Shown: piece by piece, positions 4,515-48,170 of the stretch
How positions within the stretch are numbered: the stretch's first letter is position 1
Layout of the letters: each line of letters opens with the position of its first letter
Virus record (IMG/VR): IMGVR_UViG_2579779105_000001
DNA: 64,000 nt
Source: a virus
Lineage: Duplodnaviria > Heunggongvirae > Uroviricota > Caudoviricetes
Strand: one strand, 5' to 3'
Notes under the pieces: generated by a model
What the model was told of the DNA's origin: nothing
The model's database searches: none
What the model saw: only the letters and a program-made list of their open reading frames with translations
Position numbers and translations under genes: made by a program

Positions 4515-4590
4515 TGATGGTGTAGCTCAGCGGTTAGAGCGGTTGACTGTTAATCAACGGGTCGATGGTTCAAATCCATCCACCATCGCC
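4515..4590 (+). tRNA. tRNA-Asn (anticodon GTT)
   Basis: Manual cloverleaf: acceptor GATGGTG/CACCATC, D-arm TAGCTCAGCGGTTAGAGC, anticodon loop CTGTTAA, T-loop GGTTCAAATCC, 3' CCA encoded. Confidence 0.85.
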
Positions 4591-4592
4591 AA

Positions 4593-4668
4593 TGCCGGTT
4601 TAGCTCAGTTGGTAGAGCGCCTGCCTTGTAAGCAGGATGTCAGCGGTTCGAGTCCGTTAACCGGCACC
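4593..4668 (+). tRNA. tRNA-Thr (anticodon TGT)
   Basis: Acceptor GCCGGTT/AACCGGC, anticodon stem-loop CCTGC-CTTGTAA-GCAGG, T-loop GGTTCGAGTCC, CCA encoded. Confidence 0.85.
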
Positions 4669-4677
4669 AACACAACA

Positions 4678-4750
4678 GGTAAGGGTATTTTGCGACGTCG
4701 GAGATCGCCGTGCTTGGCAGAGGGTTCGAATCCCTACGAAGTACCCTTAC
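4678..4750 (+). pseudogene. degenerate tRNA-like element
   Basis: 10-bp perfect outer stem (GGTAAGGGTA / TACCCTTACC) encloses a T-arm-like AGGGTTCGAATCCCT hairpin, but the T-arm is not adjacent to the acceptor stem and no D or anticodon arm fits. Confidence 0.3.
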
Positions 4751-4882
4751 CGTTGTGATGAAGTGCAGCTCTTTGAAGCAACCAGAAGATAAGCATCTGG
4801 CTTCACAACATAAACCGCAGGAACGACCAATAAACGGTAGTCCGTATGGAGAACACCCCGTTGAGGAAGAGGCCTGGCCGGA

Positions 4883-4993
4883 ACCGTAACCGGCACCACA
4901 ACGTTGAGAACATTGGCGTAACGGGATCATATCCCAATCTATGAATAAATGTCGCGAGGCAGCGTGACAACCAGTGTTCTCAACGTTGTGGTG
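4883..4993. repeat. 19-bp perfect inverted repeat (CACCACAACGTTGAGAACA and its reverse complement) around a 73-nt loop
   Basis: Read directly from the sequence; the loop contains a GGGATCATATCCC palindrome with a GATC site. Confidence 0.6.
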
Positions 4994-5133
4994 GATTCGC
5001 AGACTGATGCGATAGCTTTCTTGGATGTTAGGGAAATGCGGCCGCAAATCTTCCCTTTCGCGAGCGGTGATCGTCCGTAGTCCTAATTGGCTGCACCGTA
5101 TGCCGGAGATTCAGTACCGGCCACCACAACGGC

Positions 5134-5220
5134 CGGAGAGTAGGGAGCATGGTGCTCAAGCGGTCTTGAAAACCGTCCCATTGCGCAAGCGATGATGGTT
5201 CGATTCCATTACTCTCCGCC
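5134..5220 (+). tRNA. tRNA-Ser-like (anticodon TGA), class II with long variable arm; slightly non-canonical D-arm
   Basis: Acceptor GGAGAGT/ACTCTCC, anticodon arm GCGGT-CTTGAAA-ACCGT (near-identical to the E. coli tRNA-Ser(UGA) arm), T-arm GATGG-TTCGATT-CCATT, discriminator G, CCA encoded. Confidence 0.5.
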
Positions 5221-5484
5221 AGCGCAACGTTAAGAGTATTTGGCTAATTAAGCGAATGCCGGAAGCAGAACCGGATCACCAAATGCGTACAGGCGTCATC
5301 GCCGCCCAGCCAGCCAAGTGCTCTTACCATTGCGGTGAATGCGGCTAAGCGCACGCGGAACAGTTAAAACAATCCTTATTAGTGGTTAAATCAAACATCC
5401 CGGCGTTAATTGTTAACTGGTTAACGTCACCTGGAGGCACCAGGCACCGCAGCTTTTTTATTCGTTAAATAATGGAGTGAGAGG

Positions 5485-5703
5485 ATGCAGAACAATCCGA
5501 ACAAATGTCGAACGCTATGGGTGCGGCTATATATTTATGTCGTCCTCTGTTTGATTGTGTCACTGGTTCTGTATGTTTGGCTTTTGCCAAATATGATCTC
5601 ATCTGACAGCACAATACTTGTATTGTTGGGAGTCCTTCTCGCGCTCATTTACCCGGCTTTTGCAGTAGTCTTTTTTCGCAAAAAAATCCAGGAAATTGAT
5701 TAA
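5485..5703 (+). CDS. small hydrophobic membrane protein (two predicted TM helices)
   Basis: 72-aa ORF with hydrophobic segments; its stop overlaps the start of the next gene (ATTAATG). Confidence 0.45.
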   Translation: MQNNPNKCRTLWVRLYIYVVLCLIVSLVLYVWLLPNMISSDSTILVLLGVLLALIYPAFAVVFFRKKIQEID

Positions 5704-6530
5704 TGAAAAAAACGTTGATTAGTGCAGCGATTATTTTTGGTTCTTTATGTCTGACCGGATGCGACCGGGTAGAACCAGGCAATGTAGGGATCAAAGTAAA
5801 TAAGCTGGGGGATGATAAAGGTGTCGGCGAAGTAGTTGGCGTTGGTCGCTACTGGACAGGCTGGAACACAGAAGTTTATATCTTCCCGACCTTTAAGCAA
5901 ATGAAGACCTATGATGATCCGTTCAGCTTCCAAATGAGCGACGGGACAACAATTGGTTACCACATTGGTGTAGCTTACAAGGTTGATCCGGCAAAAGTCA
6001 CAACTGTATTTCAGACCTACCGCAAAGGCGTGGATGACATTACCGACACCGACCTGCGCCAGAAGATTGCCGACGCACTTAACCGACTGGCCAGCAAAAT
6101 GACCACCGACAAATTTATCGACGGTGGCAAGTCTGAACTGCTGGATGCAGCTCTTAAAGACATCCAGGAAGAAATGACGCCCATCGGTATTCAGGTAATG
6201 AGCCTCTCATATGTGGGCAAGCCGGAGTACCCGCCAACCGTTATCGACAGCATTAATGCCAAAGTCACGGCGAACCAGAAAACTCTGCAACGCGAGCAGG
6301 AAGTCAAGCAACGCGAAGCAGAAGCCAACATGCTGCGCGCAGAAGCTGCCGGACAGGCCGATGCCATTCGCACAAAAGCCCAGGCTGAAGCTGATGCCAT
6401 TCGTTTACGCGGTGAGGCTCTGCGCCAGAACCCCGGCGTTATGGAGTTGGAAGCGATCAACAAATGGAACGGAACGCTACCGCAGTATATGACCAGTAAT
6501 ACCGCTGTTCCGTTTGTTCCGGTGAAATAA
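5703..6530 (+). CDS. SPFH/band-7 (HflK/C-stomatin-like) domain lipoprotein
   Basis: Lipoprotein signal with LTGC lipobox; SPFH-like core and a C-terminal Ala/Glu/Arg-rich coiled coil (AEANMLRAEAAGQADAIRTKAQAEADAIRLRGEA). Confidence 0.6.
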   Translation: MKKTLISAAIIFGSLCLTGCDRVEPGNVGIKVNKLGDDKGVGEVVGVGRYWTGWNTEVYIFPTFKQMKTYDDPFSFQMSDGTTIGYHIGVAYKVDPAKVTTVFQTYRKGVDDITDTDLRQKIADALNRLASKMTTDKFIDGGKSELLDAALKDIQEEMTPIGIQVMSLSYVGKPEYPPTVIDSINAKVTANQKTLQREQEVKQREAEANMLRAEAAGQADAIRTKAQAEADAIRLRGEALRQNPGVMELEAINKWNGTLPQYMTSNTAVPFVPVK

Positions 6531-6543
6531 CCAAATAGAGAAC

Positions 6544-6675
6544 ATGATGGAATTTTGGACGTTTGCCGACAAGAACCCTTGGTGGACATTTTTATTTCTG
6601 CTGGTGGTTGCATATGGGGTCGAGCAAGCAGCAAAAGCCTTACGCGGTCCTGGCAAAAAGCGTAAGCGGAATTAA
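6544..6675 (+). CDS. small membrane protein (43 aa), below the ORF-track length cutoff
   Basis: Translation MMEFWTFADKNPWWTFLFLLVVAYGVEQAAKALRGPGKKRKRN: one TM segment and a basic tail, immediately downstream of the SPFH gene. Confidence 0.3.
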   Translation: MMEFWTFADKNPWWTFLFLLVVAYGVEQAAKALRGPGKKRKRN

Positions 6676-6684
6676 CAGTAATCT

Positions 6685-6760
6685 GGCCCTTTAGCTCAGT
6701 GGTTAGAGCTGGCGACTCATAATCGCACGGTCACCGGTTCAAGTCCGGTAGGGGCCACCA
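6685..6760 (+). tRNA. tRNA with CAT anticodon (Met, or Ile2 if lysidine-modified)
   Basis: Acceptor GGCCCTT/AGGGGCC with one G-U pair, D-arm TAGCTCAGTGGTTAGAGC, anticodon loop CTCATAA, T-loop GGTTCAAGTCC, CCA encoded. Confidence 0.8.
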
Positions 6761-40472: not shown

Positions 40473-41378
40473 ATGAGATCAGTCGCTTTCAAAAATATCT
40501 TCATCTATCGTCTTTCACGCGAAGTTAACTGGGATACCGCAGAAGTAAATGCAGCCCTTAGCAAGTTTGTGTTTACCCCATGCGGTTCTCAGGATATGGC
40601 TAAAGCTGGTTGGACCCCAATTCTTGGCGACAACCTCACCCATGAATACCAGGGTTTTCTTCTGATGCAGCATAAACGAGAGGAAAAAATCCTGCCTTCT
40701 CAAGTACTCAAAGAAGAGTTACAGAAAAAAATCCTGAAACTTGAAGAAGAGCAAGACAGAAAGCTGAAGAAGACCGAAAAAGATTCGCTGAAGGATGAAG
40801 TGCTTCACTCTCTTCTTCCTCGCGCTTTCACGAGAAAATCAGTCGCTAAAATCCTGATAGACCGAAGCAATCATCTGGTTTTTGTCGAGGCCAGCAGTGC
40901 TAAAAAAGCAGAGGATCAGCTGGCTTTGTTACGGAAATCGCTTGGCAGCTTGCCCGTTGTCCCCTTCTCTCCGAAAGACCCATTAGAACTGACCATCACT
41001 GGCTGGATTAAAGATGGCTTCCCGAACGGTTTCCGTGCTGGTGAGGAAGCGACTTTAAAAGCATTGCTTGATGATGGCGGCGCGGTCCGCTGCAAAAAAG
41101 TGGACCTGCTATCCGACGAGATCATGAGTCATATAGAAGCTGGTAAGGTTGCAACCACAGTTGCGGTTAACTGGCAAGACCGTGCATTTTTCAGACTGAA
41201 TGACGATATGAGTATCAAGGCTTTGTCGTTCAGCGACGAATTGTACGACCAAAACGACGATATTGATCGAGAGGATGTAGCGCAACGATTTGACGCTGAC
41301 TTTATCCTGTTTACTGCTGAATTATCAGCCATGTTCACTTCGCTAGTGGAGGCCGTTGGTGGTGAAGCAGAACGTTAA
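40473..41378 (+). CDS. hrdC: RdgC-like recombination-associated protein (HrdC)
   Basis: Extended similarity to E. coli RdgC ([76 protein letters not shown]). Confidence 0.85.
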
Positions 41379-43650
41379 CCTTAGATATGGTTCTGTTTGC
41401 AGTGGAATTGAAGCAGCGAGCATTGCCTGGGAACCGTTGGGTATGCGTCCGGCGTGGTTTGCTGAAATCGAGCCTTTTCCATCTGCCGTTCTTGCGCACC
41501 GCTGGCCCCATGTCGCCAACCTTGGCGATATGACAAAACTTGCCAAAAAAGTCCTGGCTGGGGAAATCGAATCCCCTGATGTGCTCGTCGGGGGAACACC
41601 TTGTCAGGCATTCAGTATCGCGGGATTACGTGGTGGGCTTGATGATGAGCGTGGCGCGCTAACTTTAAAGTATGTGGAGCTTGCAAATGCAATTGACGAC
41701 AAACGGGCTGAGTCATTTCTCAAACCAGCCGTTATCGTCTGGGAAAATGTCCCAGGAGTCTTGTCATCGGCAGATAACGCCTTCGGATGTTTCCTTGCCG
41801 GATTGGCTGGAGAAGATGCGCCATTCGAACCAGGTGCTCGACCTGAATCACGAAAAAGTAACGCGTTCTGGCGGTGGGATGTCAAAACCAGTTGCCATGC
41901 TCCAAAGTGGCCGCAGTGTGGTTGTATTTATGGACCGCAGCGAAAAGTGGCCTGGAGAATCCTTGATGCCCAATACTTCGGAGTGGCACAACGACGCCGA
42001 CGCGTGTTTGTTGTCGCAAGTGCTCGAACAGACCTCGATCCCGCAACGATACTTTTTGAGTTCGAAGGCGTGCGCCGGAATATTGCGCCGAGCCGAAAAA
42101 AGAAGGAAATCGCTTCCGCCATTATTGCAAATGGCGCTGCAATCAGTGGCGAAAGTCTAAATCCATGCCTACACGCTGACATGCCCCCCGGTATGAAATC
42201 GACGAAAGCCGTAAACGCTTTCAGGATGGCGGCATTTGGGGAATATATTGACGATGAAACCGCATCGACAGTAAAGGCAAGAGACTTTAAAGATGCCACT
42301 GACCTTGCCGTTTTTAGCAGCACAGGAGCAGGTTTTTGGTCAGAGGGGCATGGTACATTGCGGGCGCGTGAGCAAGAAAGCCATGAGCATCTTGTTACAT
42401 TAGCTTTTCCTGAGCATATGAGCGGTACACAACATGCTGCAACTAAGAATACTTCACCATCTCTAATGGCTCAAAATCCAACAGCCGTTTGCTATGAAGC
42501 AAGAAACGCAAAAGTAGCTGTTCGCCGTCTTACCCCTGTCGAATGTGAAAGGCTGCAAGGTTTTCCTGATGGGCATACGTTGATCCCTACGGAAAAGCGT
42601 AAAACAATTTCCTCAGATGAACTGGCATACCTTCGCAATCACTATCCAGATTTAAGCGAAGAAGAGGCCGCGATGCTCGCTGCTGACGGGCCGCGTTACA
42701 AAGCGATTGGCAACAGCATGGCAGTTCCTGTTATGCAATGGATTGGGTGTTGCATTCTTGCGACTGTGGAAGCTAAACAGCCAAAAACAATAAATACCAT
42801 TACCTACACAAGAATACTCCGGACTCCGGATGAATATGAGCGTCCGATCTTCAAATGGGTAGGAGGTAAATTCTCAGAGTTACCTACAGTGCTTGAGCAT
42901 CTACCACACGGCAAGCGGTTAATAGAACCATTCGTTGGTGGCGGTTCCGTATTTACGAATGCAGGATTTCGCCACAACCTGCTTAATGATATTAACGGTG
43001 ACCTGATTAACTTCTATCAGACATTGCAGCGAGAAGGACATTCGCTCGTCACGCTGTCATATAGTTTTTTCCAAAATTACAACAACGCTGACGCTTACCT
43101 CGAAGTGCGTGAGGCATTTAACAGAGGAAAGTATGACCAGCTACATCATGCTGCCGCCTTTTTGTACCTTAATCGGCACTGTTTTAATGGCGTAACGCGG
43201 TACAACCAAAATGGCGAGTTCAACGTGGGGTATGGCAAATACAAAGCGCCCTACTTCCCACATGCAGAGATGGAGGCATTTTTGGCTGATGACGTACTCA
43301 AAAACACGTCCTTTGTATCAGGTGACTTTGCTGGCGTCATCGAGGCGGCTGGTGAAGGCGATGTGATTTTTTGCGATCCGCCGTATGAACCGCTGCCGGA
43401 TACAGAAGGGTTTACCAGTTATTCAGGAAATAGCTTCCGTTTCGACGAACAGAAACGGCTGGTATCTCTATTGGTGGAAGCCCACCAGCGCGGCGCTAAG
43501 GTAGTGATTACAAATAGTGGTGCGCCAAACATCCGTGAACTATATGAAGGAAACGGGTTTAAAGTACATCATATGGCAGCCAGACGGTCGGTTTCCTGCA
43601 AGGCGTCAACACGTGTAGTTGCTAACGATATAATTGCAATAATGAAGTAA
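41356..43650 (+). CDS. dmt: bifunctional DNA methyltransferase (N-terminal C5-cytosine MTase fused to C-terminal Dam-like N6-adenine MTase; Dmt-like)
   Basis: [12 protein letters not shown] (C5-MTase PCQ motif) and ENVPGV in the N-terminal half; WVGGKF and FCDPPYEP (DPPY) in the C-terminal half. Overlaps the hrdC 3' end. Confidence 0.8.
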
Positions 43651-43652
43651 AA

Positions 43653-43681
43653 AACGCCGCAGTAGCGGCGTTTACTTTTTT
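43653..43681. terminator. bidirectional rho-independent terminator (AACGCCGC-AGTA-GCGGCGTT)
   Basis: Flanked by A-run and T-run, between convergent dmt and glnS. Confidence 0.6.
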
Positions 43682-43698
43682 ATGTGGCGAAATACCTA

Positions 43699-45360
43699 TT
43701 AACCTAACTTCGCCCAGGTATCACGCAGCCCAACGGTGCGGTTAAATACCGGTTTTTCCGCCGTAGAATGGCGGCTGTCGAGGCAGAAATAACCTTCACG
43801 CTCAAACTGGAATGCTTTACCAGCTACCGCTTCTTTCAGCGACGGTTCAGCAAAGCCCTGTTTGATCACCAGCGATTCCGGGTTAATCACCGACAGAAAA
43901 TCATCCGCAGCACCTGGGTTCGGTACACTGAACAGACGGTCGTACAGGCGAATTTCAACCGGCAGCGCATGGGCCGCGCTTACCCAGTGGATAACGCCTT
44001 TCACTTTACGACCATCTGCCGGATCTTTGCTTAAAGTATCGGCATCGTAGGTACAGAAGATGGTGGTGATATTGCCTTCGGCATCTTTCTCCACGCGTTC
44101 AGCCTTAATGACGTAAGCATTACGCAGACGCACTTCTTTACCCAGCACCAGACGTTTGTACTGCTTGTTAGCTTCTTCGCGGAAATCGGCGCGGTCGATC
44201 CAAATCTCACCGCTAAACGGCACCTGACGGCTACCCATTTCCGGTTTGTTCGGATGGTTCGGCATGGTGACCATTTCGCCTTCGCCCTGGTAGTTTTCGA
44301 TAACCAGTTTCACCGGATCGATAACCGCCATTGCGCGCGGCGCATTTTCGTTGAGATCTTCACGGATGCAGGATTCCAGCGACGCCATCTCAATGGTGTT
44401 GTCCTGCTTGGTCACGCCGATGCGTTTGCAGAACTCACGAATAGAAGCCGCAGTGTAACCACGACGACGCAGACCGGAAATGGTCGGCATACGCGGGTCA
44501 TCCCAGCCTTCAACGTGCTTGTCGGTCACCAGCAGGTTCAGCTTACGCTTGGACATCACAGTGTATTCCAGATTCAGGCGCGAGAATTCGTACTGGCGCG
44601 GGTGAACAGGAATGGTGATGTTGTCCAGCACCCAGTCGTACAGGCGACGGTTGTCCTGGAACTCAAGCGTACACAGAGAGTGCGTAATACCTTCCAGCGC
44701 ATCGCTGATGCAGTGGGTGAAGTCGTACATCGGGTAGATGCACCACTTGTTGCCAGTCTGGTGGTGTTCAGCAAACTTAATGCGGTACAGCACCGGATCG
44801 CGCATCACGATAAACGGCGACGCCATGTCGATTTTCGCACGCAGGCAGGCTTTACCTTCTTCAAAACCACCGGCACGCATTTTTTCGAACAGCGCCAGGT
44901 TCTCTTCAACGCTGCGATCGCGGTACGGGCTGTTTTTACCCGGCTGCGTCAGGGTGCCGCGGTATTCGCGGATCTGTTCCGGCGTCAGTTCGTCAACATA
45001 CGCCAGGCCTTTGTTGATCAGTTCAACAGCATAGGCGTGGAGCTGATCAAAATAATCGGAGGAGTAACGGACGTTACCAGACCAGTGAAAACCTAACCAT
45101 TCAACGTCGTTTTTAATCGACTCGACGTACTCGATATCTTCTTTTACCGGGTTAGTGTCGTCGAAACGCAGGTTGCACTGGCCTTTATAGTCCTGGGCGA
45201 TCCCGAAGTTCAGGCAGATAGATTTCGCATGACCAATATGCAGATAGCCATTCGGTTCCGGCGGGAAACGGGTATGTACTGTGGTGTGCTTACCACTTGC
45301 CAGATCTTCATCGATGATCTGACGAATAAAGTTAGTCGGGCGGGCTTCTGCCTCACTCAT
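43699..45360 (-). CDS. glnS: glutaminyl-tRNA synthetase (full length, host-like)
   Basis: 553 aa, essentially co-linear with E. coli GlnS from [20 protein letters not shown] through the C-terminal anticodon-binding domain; HIGH motif (HIGH) and VMSKR present. Confidence 0.95.
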
Positions 45361-45628
45361 TGTGGATTCCTCAAAGCGTAAAAAACGTATAACAGCGTAT
45401 GATCTTATAAGCCGAATAGGCTGACAACCACTAGTTGATTAGAAATTGCTTTCTATCGTTATTTCAATAATGAGCTTTTTCATGAAGCCCACTTTTGCGC
45501 ATAAGTAAATTAATGACAAATGGTACACAATTGGAACCAAAAAGGATGTAAAGGTGCACCAAATTAGTGGTGTATTGGTGCATCTTTGGTTCAAGATTTT
45601 TTAAGTTCTAAAACCACCCTGAAAGACT

Positions 45629-45916
45629 TTATTTTGCTTCCTCAGACTCCGCTAACATGAGGATAGCATGGCGGATCATATTCAATTTGCTGCGATTATG
45701 CTTTTTACTTAACGCATCAAGTACCTGGTACTCGTATTCATTGAAACCAACACGAATAGATTTAAAATCACGTGGAGCGTCCTTATCGAGCACTTTGTTG
45801 TCTTCTGGTTGCTCACCCGGCACCAAATCAGCCTTACTTGCAAAATCCTCAATTCGGCGTTCAAGATCGGGGTCTTTTACTTCGGGGGCTTTTACCGATT
45901 TACGAGGTTTAATCAC
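45629..45916 (-). CDS. small centromere-binding partition protein (ParG/ParB-like, type Ib)
   Basis: 95 aa immediately downstream of and overlapping the ParA-like ATPase gene. Confidence 0.5.
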   Translation of the reverse strand: MIKPRKSVKAPEVKDPDLERRIEDFASKADLVPGEQPEDNKVLDKDAPRDFKSIRVGFNEYEYQVLDALSKKHNRSKLNMIRHAILMLAESEEAK

Positions 45917-46550
45917 TTAATAACTCCTTAACCAACATCTGGATTTCACCTTTAGCTTTCCCGTTGTCCATCTCAACAACGCCCTTCCCTTCAGCCATGC
46001 AATCGCGGTAAACCTTACGATCACGAATGATGGTTTTCAGCAACTTCAGTTGCGGATATTCAGCCAGGTACTCTTTGGCCTCATTGGTTTCATTCACAAC
46101 CGGATTGGATGGGGCCATTGTTAAGACTGCGAACGCCTTAATGCTAGGATTAGGCATCAGGTCCAAAGCCTCTTCAAACACTTCAACAAAGTGTGCCAGC
46201 GTGTCTAAATCTGGTTGAGATGGTCTGAATGGGACCAACACAATATCTGCAGCGGTTATGCCTGTACGCATCTCTTTGCTATCGCGCCCGGCTGTATCAA
46301 CAACTACAAATTCATAACGCTTATCCAGATCGAGAAGTGTTTCTCGAATATTACCAAACTTCTGGACACAATGAATTACAGGAGAAACCTCTGCCGTGTT
46401 ACGGTCAGCGGCCCAGCGGGCAGCTGTTCCTTGCTTGTCTGCATCTAGTAACACTACATCCTTATTTTCGCGGGCAAGCTCCGCACAGATGTTTACGCTT
46501 GTGGTTGATTTTCCACAGCCACCTTTTTGGCTGACTACCAATATAATCAT
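45909..46550 (-). CDS. ParA/ParF-family partition ATPase (small, type Ib)
   Basis: Deviant Walker A KGGCGKST at the N-terminus; 213 aa. Confidence 0.75.
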   Translation of the reverse strand: MIILVVSQKGGCGKSTTSVNICAELARENKDVVLLDADKQGTAARWAADRNTAEVSPVIHCVQKFGNIRETLLDLDKRYEFVVVDTAGRDSKEMRTGITAADIVLVPFRPSQPDLDTLAHFVEVFEEALDLMPNPSIKAFAVLTMAPSNPVVNETNEAKEYLAEYPQLKLLKTIIRDRKVYRDCMAEGKGVVEMDNGKAKGEIQMLVKELLSD

Positions 46551-46569
46551 ATCCGTTCCTCGGTGTTAT

Positions 46570-46800
46570 TTTGGTATCAAACTGGTTCCAAACAGAAGCC
46601 TTATTGATGCAGTTTTGGCTCTATAGTGGAGTCATTATGCTTTGCAAAAGTATAACACTAATCATTCTAAATTTGCCCTCTGTTGCATCCTGTTTAACAC
46701 GAAATCAGCCCTAAATTGGAACCAGATACAAAACTGCACCATAACAGCACCTAACCGGTGCCAGATTAACACCAATTAGGCACCATTAAGGCATAAAAAA
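46570..46800. repeat. centromere/operator-like repeat region upstream of the ParA-like gene
   Basis: Repeated TGGAACCA and (T/G)GCACCA motifs; related repeats also occur downstream at about 45530-45600. Confidence 0.4.
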
Positions 46801-46837
46801 GGCTGCAATTTGCAGCCTTAAACCAGCACATCTTCTG

Positions 46838-47182
46838 TCAATCAGGTAGAGAGTCAGCCAGATTGCGCGCCGACGCGCTTTTGGCAACAACTTGCTCCTT
46901 CACTGGCTCAATGGAGGCAGGGCGCTCCTCAACCGCAGCTGGTAGTTCCAGGAAGGATGCCAGCATTTTTCGGATCAGCTCCGGATTATTATCTTCGGTC
47001 AGCAGGGAAGCCAGTAATCCTGGAAGCCTGCTATCGACTTCTCCCAGCGCAAGCCCTGCCAACAATGCGGTTCTTGCCATATCGCTATGTTTTTTTATCT
47101 TCTCGCTCGCCGCCTTTTCATTGGCATAAGCCTCTGGGCGAAGATAAATCATCACTTTCTTACGTTCCTGAGACATGGACAT
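46838..47182 (-). CDS. parR: ParR (StbB-like) centromere-binding protein
   Basis: 114 aa downstream of parM; ARTALLAGLALG region resembles R1 ParR. Confidence 0.6.
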   Translation of the reverse strand: MSMSQERKKVMIYLRPEAYANEKAASEKIKKHSDMARTALLAGLALGEVDSRLPGLLASLLTEDNNPELIRKMLASFLELPAAVEERPASIEPVKEQVVAKSASARNLADSLPD

Positions 47183-47189
47183 TACCTCG

Positions 47190-48146
47190 TTAACCGATTG
47201 CTTTCAGGCCATGAACAAGAGCAAGTTGCGGGTCATCCGCCACGAAGAAACGGTCATCACGAATATTAACTTGCTCGCGAATTGCATCTGCCACCAGCGG
47301 TGCGCCACCACCGATCACCATGACATGCGTATATCCTTTAAAGTCGCCAATCACATCAAGAACGCGGGTACGCAGACGGTCAATGCTTGCGGCAATGGCC
47401 TTTTTCACATCACCAATCGCTGATGGGTCATTGATATTGTCGTTCAGATAATCTTCATCGTGGCGGTTAATAATGAGCTGATCGACATTGTAATTTGACG
47501 TTTCGGTATTGGCCCTTGCAAGTGCTTGCCTTACTTCCCTGGTGACCAGTGATACACCAAGATTCGAATCGCCAAAAACACGGGAAACTGCCGTCATTTG
47601 CCCGGCGACCATTGAAACATCAAGGGTAGTTCCACCCAAATCGACGATAAGAACAGAATGGGCAGGGTTCAGATTGTCGCACAGGCCAATTCCTGCCGGA
47701 ATAGACTCCGGTCGTACCGTAACTTTCTTAATCGTGAACACATTGCCTTTATTCAGCGTGACGGGGCGCATAAGACTGGCTTTCTTGCGCTCGATGTTAT
47801 CGAGATTGTATTGCGCGTCGTCGTCGTAAAACTCCGCCAGAGGCAGCGTGACCACAATTTCTACTTCCTGCGGCTCAATGCCACTTGTCAGCAGGGCATG
47901 GTGAACAGCCAGGACGTTAAGCGGGCTGTATTGCCATTCCACGTTATTCGTCGGCAGAACATCTGGCGAGATCAAATCATACGAATACTTTTCGTCGTCA
48001 ATGACATAGTTAAACGGCTTGCCCGCACCAAATGTTGCTGACCATCCGCGCTTAAAGCTGTTAGGGCTGATGTGAGTGCGAGTTTCCCCGTCGTGCTCCC
48101 ACAGCATTTTGATATTGGTTGAACCATCATCGATAAAAATGCGCAT
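47190..48146 (-). CDS. parM: ParM (StbA) actin-like partition ATPase
   Basis: Start set at MRIFIDDGSTNIK; extensive similarity to R1 ParM (ISPNSFKR, NVLAVHHALLTSG, IERKKA, MPESIPAG, IVDLGGTTLDVS, GDSNLGVSLVT, GYTHVMVIGGGA, RDDRFF). Confidence 0.85.
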   Translation of the reverse strand: MRIFIDDGSTNIKMLWEHDGETRTHISPNSFKRGWSATFGAGKPFNYVIDDEKYSYDLISPDVLPTNNVEWQYSPLNVLAVHHALLTSGIEPQEVEIVVTLPLAEFYDDDAQYNLDNIERKKASLMRPVTLNKGNVFTIKKVTVRPESIPAGIGLCDNLNPAHSVLIVDLGGTTLDVSMVAGQMTAVSRVFGDSNLGVSLVTREVRQALARANTETSNYNVDQLIINRHDEDYLNDNINDPSAIGDVKKAIAASIDRLRTRVLDVIGDFKGYTHVMVIGGGAPLVADAIREQVNIRDDRFFVADDPQLALVHGLKAIG

Positions 48147-48170
48147 CTTCTTGCTCCACTTCTGAGACAC

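Follow-up and report, generated by a model that had tools for sequence, protein, structure and literature searches.

The 64,000-nt stretch of viral DNA analyzed here (hereafter, the window) carries an intact, Escherichia-derived glnS gene as cargo of a D6-like phage-plasmid. The gene lies at positions 43699-45360 on the minus strand and encodes a full-length class I glutaminyl-tRNA synthetase (GlnRS) of 553 amino acids. That D6-like elements bear glnS is already known, since orf62 of Escherichia phage D6 (NC_050154) is recorded as 'glutaminyl-tRNA synthetase, similar to E. coli GlnS' and a 2019 study (PMC6799933) reported glnS in all D6-like genomes and called it a moron. Drawing a parallel with the plasmid cysS gene of S. 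Typhimurium D23580, the authors of that study speculated that glnS contributes to fitness or to the maintenance of the plasmid, and we found no functional test of a D6-like glnS in the literature. Our analysis adds to this the boundaries of the captured cassette, evidence pointing to a single capture, the finding that gene conversion with chromosomal glnS has produced mosaic alleles, and the detection of relatives in which the site is empty. Of these points, the exchange with chromosomal alleles is an incremental addition to the documented presence of the gene.

An intact Escherichia glnS on a D6-like phage-plasmid

The assignment of the gene, which begins with an ATG, relies on the ORF listing, a profile search, and alignments. 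Its product matched TIGR00440, the NCBIfam equivalog profile for glnS, over the entire profile (positions 1-524 of 524) with 1067.6 bits, the curated cut-off being 425.8 bits. It also aligned end to end with solved chains of E. coli GlnRS (residues 1-553 with 1o0b_A and 2-553 with 1gtr-type chains), and the anticodon-binding beta-barrel domains are present, given that the protein is co-linear to the C-terminus and only its last residues differ. More specifically, 550 of the 553 residues are identical to K-12 GlnS; the changes are I112V, D510E, and V552L, and the terminal E554 is absent, such that the tail reads AKLG* in the window vs AKVGE* in K-12. The class I motifs HIGH (residues 41-44) and VMSKR (residues 268-272; the E. 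coli GlnRS form of KMSKS) are kept in all 24 alleles compared. At the nucleotide level, identity with K-12 glnS is 96.2%, and nearly all of the 62 differences in 1650 nt (3.8%) are synonymous. In addition, glnS has the highest GC3 (0.61) of the 54 long ORFs in the window, compared with 0.47 +/- 0.06 for the backbone, and the GC profile agrees. A preliminary description of this DNA, made from the sequence alone, had placed a 553-aa GlnS-like ORF at exactly this position, had regarded it as host-derived cargo within a phage-plasmid, and had proposed comparing its GC content with that of the backbone; identity to K-12 and the host-like composition of the gene bear out this view of its origin.

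The same description had assumed a P1-type backbone. The backbone is instead that of a D6-like (P1-related) phage-plasmid and not of P1 proper, and glnS is a usual component of the D6 lineage. Indeed, window positions 43000-46000 are 98.1% identical to D6 with the same gene order, and synteny with D6 covers tail/baseplate genes, hrdC/rdgC, dmt, glnS, orf61, parA, a stbB-like gene, a parM-like gene, and upfC/upfB. This interval displays up to 99.8% identity to closed ~90-kb plasmids, and coverage of at least 80% was reached by 98 PLSDB plasmids, whose hosts are E. coli, Salmonella, and Shigella. The final 18 kb of the window are 99.8% identical to a ~90-kb D6-like plasmid, and the same family covers ~84% of the initial 25 kb; the ~90-kb plasmids that match the window ends are non-mobilizable. 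Among 5,426 complete E. coli genomes, the module formed by orf61 and parA, which flanks glnS, was found on 94 plasmids and on no chromosome. Judging by homology to these closed circular relatives, the element is most probably kept as an extrachromosomal circle, of which the window itself is a linear excerpt.

A mis-assembly that joined chromosomal glnS to a plasmid, or a window that is chromosomal, was also considered, as the preliminary description had raised the possibility of chimeric junctions or a chromosomal contig. This explanation, for which we found no supporting point, is ruled out by the recurrence of the same junctions in D6 and in ~100 independently assembled circular plasmids, and its probability is practically nil. 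One junction is located at the promoter and the other within the final codons, and not at repeat boundaries, both window ends consist of D6-like plasmid sequence, and the partition module is confined to plasmids (94 vs 0 chromosomes). The absence of this module from the chromosomes of the 5,426 E. coli genomes also led us to reject the idea that glnS serves as an integration site for homologous recombination.

The captured cassette and its surroundings

By aligning the region with K-12 and a further nine E. coli chromosomes, we delimited the segment that is homologous to the chromosomal glnS locus, namely a captured cassette of ~1.73 kb at positions 43709-45436 (minus strand), thereby locating the breakpoints that the preliminary description had suggested seeking by alignment to the host locus. 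Its 5' limit is found 76 nt upstream of the ATG, just before the -35 box (window position 45436), where homology starts with AACTA..GTTGTCAG. The 3' limit falls within the last three codons (~43709), and homology stops after ...TGGGCGAA. The cassette therefore contains the native promoter, leader, and ribosome-binding site, without the chromosomal terminator or flanks.

A promoter scan placed the native sigma-70 promoter of glnS (TTGTCA-17 nt-GATCAT) at positions 45399-45427 (minus strand); it is conserved in all plasmid alleles, and its -10 hexamer contains a GATC (Dam) site. Plasmid-specific substitutions are present in the spacer, plasmid alleles having GCCTATTCGG and chromosomes GCCTGTCCCG in the promoter, and just upstream of the -35 box the element has ACTAGTGG where chromosomes have ACTAACAG. 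We considered a late-promoter motif at ACTAGTGG and rejected it as a repeated regulatory motif, since ACTAGTG occurs twice in the window vs ~4 times expected by chance. The chromosomal glnS promoter is repressed by Dam methylation, according to Plumbridge & Soll (1987) as cited in PMC12369378, and the latter study found that deletion of dam derepresses chromosomal glnS ~2-fold (log2FC +1.08).

On the left, glnS is convergent with dmt (positions 41356-43650, plus strand), a single ORF for a 764-aa Dcm+Dam double methyltransferase that was recognized by the TIGR00571 (dam) and TIGR00675 (dcm) profiles and by the D6 annotation. The two genes are separated by a bidirectional intrinsic terminator at positions 43652-43673, detected by a terminator scan of both strands (9 pairs, of which 6 are G-C). 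This terminator is element sequence and not the chromosomal glnS terminator, and there is no similarity to the chromosomal locus 3' of the stop codon. On the right, orf61 (95 aa) and a small ParA ATPase (213 aa) lie upstream of, and co-directional with, glnS at positions 45629-46550 (minus strand; ORFs corresponding to D6 orf61/orf60); the ParA ATPase matched the NF041546 ParA_partition profile with 162.8 bits, slightly under the 180-bit cut-off. Beyond them is a ParM/StbA-type partition pair, and glnS is co-directional with two partition modules in the plasmid-maintenance region. The stretch from the cassette to orf61 (positions 45437-45628) is an element-specific spacer with nested inverted repeats (AAAGGTGCACCAA/TTGGTGCATCTTT and GAACCAAA/TTTGGTTC), which may act as a terminator or centromere-like site for the ParA/orf61 module. 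The location of glnS between the dmt terminator and the partition loci, as noted in the preliminary description, was thereby supported by ORFs, terminator scan, profiles, and D6 annotation.

The junctions of the cassette are informative about its history. We compared 12 alleles (i.e., those of the window, D6, and ten plasmids from E. coli, Salmonella, and Shigella) together with a 13th from a diverged E. fergusonii plasmid. All 13 alleles have an identical 5' junction, which indicates that a single old capture event probably lies behind all of them. Apart from the E. fergusonii plasmid, every allele (12 of 12) also displays common plasmid-private substitutions in the promoter spacer and leader, the AKLG* end, and the terminator. 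The E. fergusonii plasmid is 78.5% identical in the parA region and 94.8% identical in glnS. Synonymous divergence (dS) between the window and K-12 is 0.18; given that chromosomal glnS alleles of E. coli reach a maximum of ~2.7% divergence from K-12 and that E. ruysiae is at 5%, the plasmid alleles are placed at or slightly past the edge of E. coli diversity. The preliminary description had offered a recent capture as one possibility, a notion at odds with this dS value and with the occurrence of the same cassette and 5' junction in D6, ~100 closed plasmids, and the E. fergusonii plasmid. The allele of Salmonella pSa1423-90k (89% identity) looked host-flavored and was excluded, as its genes are indel-riddled and unannotated, probably owing to sequencing error.

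D6 orf62 and the D6-like prophages (e.g., pYU39_89) share with the window the dmt-orf61/parA position of glnS, the junctions, the promoter variants, and the AKLG* end. The GlnRS proteins of D6 and the window are 99.3% identical, and their genes differ at 46 of 1650 nt; in the 3' part of the gene the window keeps a divergent synonymous block where D6 has a K-12-like tract. The two elements also differ in dmt, which is one 764-aa ORF in the window vs two annotated in D6. The chromosomal gene of E. coli (b0680) resembles the window gene in being full-length and co-linear with it, and in its catalytic motifs, promoter hexamers, GATC site, and ribosome-binding region. Unlike b0680, the window gene has neither nagE upstream nor chiZ/chiP and the chromosomal terminator downstream, and it carries four promoter/leader substitutions and the altered tail.

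Not all related plasmids have the gene. Plasmid glnS was detected on 81 plasmids in the 5,426 complete E. coli genomes vs 94 plasmids with the orf61-parA module, and therefore ~13 of the 94 (~14%) lack glnS. The element can thus do without glnS. We inspected two empty-site relatives (E. coli NZ_CP159120.1 and E. marmotae NZ_CP056699.1), both of which have the same gene order with 135 bp from dmt to orf61. In these relatives, the 3' end of dmt is ~70% identical to that of the window, the terminator and spacer are different, and homology to the window resumes only at position 45631. Given that the entire stretch from the 3' end of dmt to orf61 is different, the empty site may be ancestral or may stem from a loss or replacement. 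As glnS-less relatives exist, the report that every D6-like genome carries glnS has to be qualified. We also considered other cargo at the glnS site in distant relatives; in E. coli W444 and S. dysenteriae 93-119, the plasmid offers no space for a gene at this position.

Constraint and exchange with chromosomal glnS

A comparison of the window gene with that of K-12 revealed 60 synonymous and 2 nonsynonymous differences (dN/dS 0.009), and the corresponding dN/dS for D6 glnS is 0.027. The reading frame is open in all 13 plasmid alleles, none of which is a pseudogene. Among private variants, 34 synonymous and 9 nonsynonymous changes are restricted to plasmids (the latter including six singleton amino-acid changes in 12 alleles), and 54 and 5, respectively, are restricted to chromosomes (Fisher p = 0.086). 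Plasmid glnS is therefore clearly constrained, albeit perhaps in a slightly relaxed manner.

In addition, the plasmid alleles are mosaics that arose by repeated exchange with chromosomal glnS. They are up to 54 nt apart from one another although their flanks are 98-99% identical. The allele of pAPEC201603 has a chromosomal B1-type tract from nt 1 to ~1500 and keeps the plasmid-type promoter and 3' end; it differs by only 12 nt from the HB-Coli0 chromosome vs 39-54 nt from the other plasmid alleles. K-12-like tracts were found at ~nt 1020-1570 in D6, pYU39_89, and an O111:H11 plasmid, and at ~nt 1260-1540 in p98228. Permutation of the max-chi-square statistic gave p <= 0.001 for each of pAPEC201603, D6/pYU39_89, and p98228. 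The exchange is episodic and not continuous, because the plasmid and chromosomal alleles of the same strain differ by 57 nt in EP91B and by 47 nt in 98228.

The 3' block of the window mentioned above corresponds to gene nt 1271-1470 (window positions 43891-44090, minus strand) and, according to the polymorphic-site table, contains synonymous differences only and is shared with a few plasmids (e.g., pIso00270_02). It is 6.5-10% away from every sampled chromosomal allele, the best chromosomal match being 93.5%, and all variant sites that are unique to the window/pIso00270_02 group are synonymous. When window positions 43711-44211 were used as a 501-nt query, only 6 E. coli records had at least 99% identity, and all of them are plasmids. 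A donor of the block was not found among E. coli chromosomes, E. ruysiae, and more distant genera, a set without the chromosomes of E. albertii, E. marmotae, and E. fergusonii.

The frequent and long conversion tracts raise the possibility that plasmid glnS is a neutral hitch-hiker, which brings no benefit and stays intact only through recombinational repair from the selected chromosomal copy. The higher nonsynonymous share among plasmid-private variants (9:34 vs 5:54, at the p value given above) and the ~14% of related plasmids that do without the gene are in line with such a scenario, which we nonetheless regard as unlikely. None of the 13 alleles has decayed into a pseudogene, the plasmid-private ratio of 9:34 is far under the neutral expectation, and the 47-57 nt that separate matched plasmid/chromosome pairs show that conversion does not proceed continuously. 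Moreover, the alleles resident in Salmonella are intact and E. coli-like, that of pYU39_89 being 2 nt from D6, even though the host gene (S. enterica chromosomal glnS, 82% identity in the 200-nt block tested) is too diverged for ready repair.

Possible function of the plasmid copy

Given this evidence, we propose that an ancestor of the D6 lineage acquired, in a single event and presumably by illegitimate recombination, a piece of ~1.73 kb from a host chromosome, which was placed between dmt and orf61. The captured piece would have brought along its Dam-sensitive sigma-70 promoter and would have gained the AKLG* tail and an element-encoded terminator. Later on, glnS remained intact under strong constraint, with internal tracts being swapped repeatedly with chromosomal alleles by homologous recombination. 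In the plasmid-prophage state, we infer that active GlnRS is made from the native promoter, each plasmid copy contributing one extra gene dose, with a much larger increase to be expected in lytic replication. The additional capacity for charging Gln-tRNA(Gln) might benefit the element, the lysogen, or both, a benefit that we postulate from the conservation of glnS. GlnRS overproduction mischarges non-cognate tRNAs in E. coli, and retention of the weak, Dam-repressed native promoter may keep the dose low enough to avoid this. As deduced from sequence comparisons, an extra, natively regulated dose of GlnRS is the most likely role of the gene, and the account as a whole (i.e., single capture, constraint with exchange, and extra dose) appears to us probable, with a substantial margin for error.

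There is no evidence of a special demand for GlnRS on the part of the element, since glutamine is not enriched in its ORF products (Gln 3.6%) and it has no tRNA-Gln. Indeed, ARAGORN detected only tRNAs for Asn, Thr, Ser, and Met(CAT) in the window (at 4.5-6.8 kb) and none for Gln, in agreement with the preliminary description. Likewise, nothing points to a moonlighting role of the plasmid GlnRS, which the preliminary description had listed as an option next to the extra glnS dose.

The extra GlnRS could also be a counter-measure or backup, protecting lysogens or lytic growth from a toxin, defence system, or inhibitor that hits GlnRS or tRNA-Gln charging. There are general precedents, as duplicated aminoacyl-tRNA synthetase genes often confer resistance to inhibitors of these enzymes and phages use tRNAs of their own to bypass anticodon nucleases; the element itself has four tRNAs. 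Such a function for plasmid glnS is very improbable, however, since the window holds neither a GlnRS-directed toxin nor a tRNA-Gln gene linked to glnS. Because the protein is ~99.5% identical to the host enzyme, it could not act as an insensitive variant, and only its dosage could matter.

Another explanation is addiction to an essential gene, whereby the plasmid copy takes over the supply of GlnRS (e.g., upon down-regulation of the chromosomal copy), plasmid loss becomes costly, and the element is stabilized. A precedent is known from pBT1 of S. Typhimurium D23580, on which cysS, like plasmid glnS, is a host-type class I aminoacyl-tRNA synthetase gene on a low-copy enterobacterial plasmid. 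Experiments showed that this cysS, which is 79% (nucleotide) and 89% (amino acid) identical to the chromosomal one, is required for growth and that chromosomal cysS is repressed (PMC6333337). Addiction was proposed for D6-like glnS by the authors of PMC6799933, and the position of the gene next to two co-directional partition modules would suit it. The probability that it applies here is nevertheless low. Unlike the two cysS copies, those of glnS are 96% (nucleotide) and 99.5% (amino acid) identical, and chromosomal glnS is intact in carriers. A match to the chromosomal gene was found in 5,425 of the 5,426 complete E. coli genomes (at 5,428 chromosomal places), and the chromosomal glnS of the carriers EP91B and 98228 is an intact 554-aa ORF with a normal promoter, which means that, at the gene level, the loss or inactivation of the chromosomal copy to be looked for under plasmid addiction was not seen in these two strains. 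In addition, the near-identity of the plasmid and chromosomal glnS promoters leaves no obvious mechanism for selective repression, and the element already possesses two toxin-antitoxin systems (PMC6799933), with higBA-like genes being present in the D6 annotation.

A bolder version would combine addiction with recombination. Here, plasmid glnS would be a maintained patch of homology for continual exchange between phage-plasmid and host, the chromosomal copy would be down-regulated or dispensable, as for cysS of pBT1, and the element would be addictive. We give this idea little credence; if it were true, the glnS mosaic of each plasmid would record its past hosts.

Plasmid glnS may be of broader significance. 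When a mobile, transducing replicon provides another copy of a gene that is essential for translation, this could have consequences for the fitness of lysogens, for the stability of the plasmid, and for the exchange of glnS alleles. E. coli, Salmonella, and Shigella commonly carry D6-like elements, and 94 of the 5,426 complete E. coli genomes possess the flanking partition module. Few temperate phages encode a full-length aminoacyl-tRNA synthetase. Full-length GlnRS proteins are also encoded by uncultured jumbo phages, human-gut 'Bacteriophage sp.' contigs, and 'Acinetobacter phage MD-2021a'; their protein identity to the window GlnRS is only 50-57% and their genomes are unrelated, and they are therefore independent acquisitions. 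Within the collection searched, D6-like elements are the only cultured-phage lineage with an enterobacterial-type glnS.

Neighbors of the glnS cassette

To the left of glnS, and convergent with it, lies dmt (window positions 41356-43650, plus strand), a Dcm and Dam fusion of 764 aa encoded by a single unbroken ORF. The phage D6 annotation, by contrast, divides dmt between orf64 and orf63, and many RefSeq plasmid records mark its Dam portion as an incomplete pseudogene.

On the other side, two unlike partition modules adjoin each other at positions 45629-48170 (minus strand). The first comprises a small ParA (213 aa) and orf61, whose 95-aa product matched no family, and the second pairs an actin-type ATPase of 326 aa that resembles ParM/StbA with a partner protein of 114 aa. 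Among plasmids that are alike in other parts, the identity of the ParA/orf61 module ranged from 77% to 100%, and this sequence comparison suggests module swapping at ParA/orf61.

The glnS cassette is separated from orf61 by a spacer (positions 45437-45628) that contains nested inverted repeats, AAAGGTGCACCAA/TTGGTGCATCTTT and GAACCAAA/TTTGGTTC, as well as a direct repeat, TGTAnnGGTGCA, with copies 24 nt apart. We postulate that this spacer may be a centromere-like site or a parA operon terminator. In the glnS-less relatives (i.e., plasmids with the same partition module but an empty site between dmt and orf61), the spacer differs from that of the window, yet it carries similar GGTAC/ACACC-type motifs.

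Plasmid and chromosomal glnS

The glnS allele of the D6-like plasmid pSa1423-90k from Salmonella sp. (NZ_MK356557.1), together with its flanks, has numerous small indels, and the record is nearly devoid of gene annotation. Low sequencing accuracy is probably the cause, and not true divergence of the allele. Among the plasmid copies compared, the most altered GlnRS protein is that encoded by Shigella flexneri plasmid CP058777.1, with W549R and Q235R, and these substitutions may reflect a case of relaxed constraint.

Analysis of 5,426 complete E. coli genomes uncovered one without any glnS match in three separate searches; some of these genomes have matches at up to three places. An IS200C transposase gene is situated ~230 bp from chromosomal glnS in two strains, 98228 (chromosomal locus L096, IS200C region at 1-68) and CFSAN018748 (chromosomal locus L103, 890-1348), being upstream of glnS in one and downstream in the other. 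In addition, B2-type chromosomes (loci L099-L101) have a DeoR/GlpR regulator gene in place of nagE upstream of glnS. Given these differences, the chromosomal glnS flanks are variable, up to a conserved CTAACTAACAG directly before the -35 box.

Window ends and tRNA genes

The last 18 kb of the window showed 100% coverage at 99.8% identity. Positions 1-25000 are ~84% covered by the closest plasmids, in 5-12 pieces at 95-96% identity, and this part therefore includes variable segments. It also hosts a cluster of four tRNA genes on the plus strand (positions 4516-6760), namely Asn(GTT), Thr(TGT), Ser(TGA), and a fourth with a CAT anticodon that was called as Met. The same four-tRNA set has been reported for the D6-like plasmid prophage pYU39_89 (PMC6799933).
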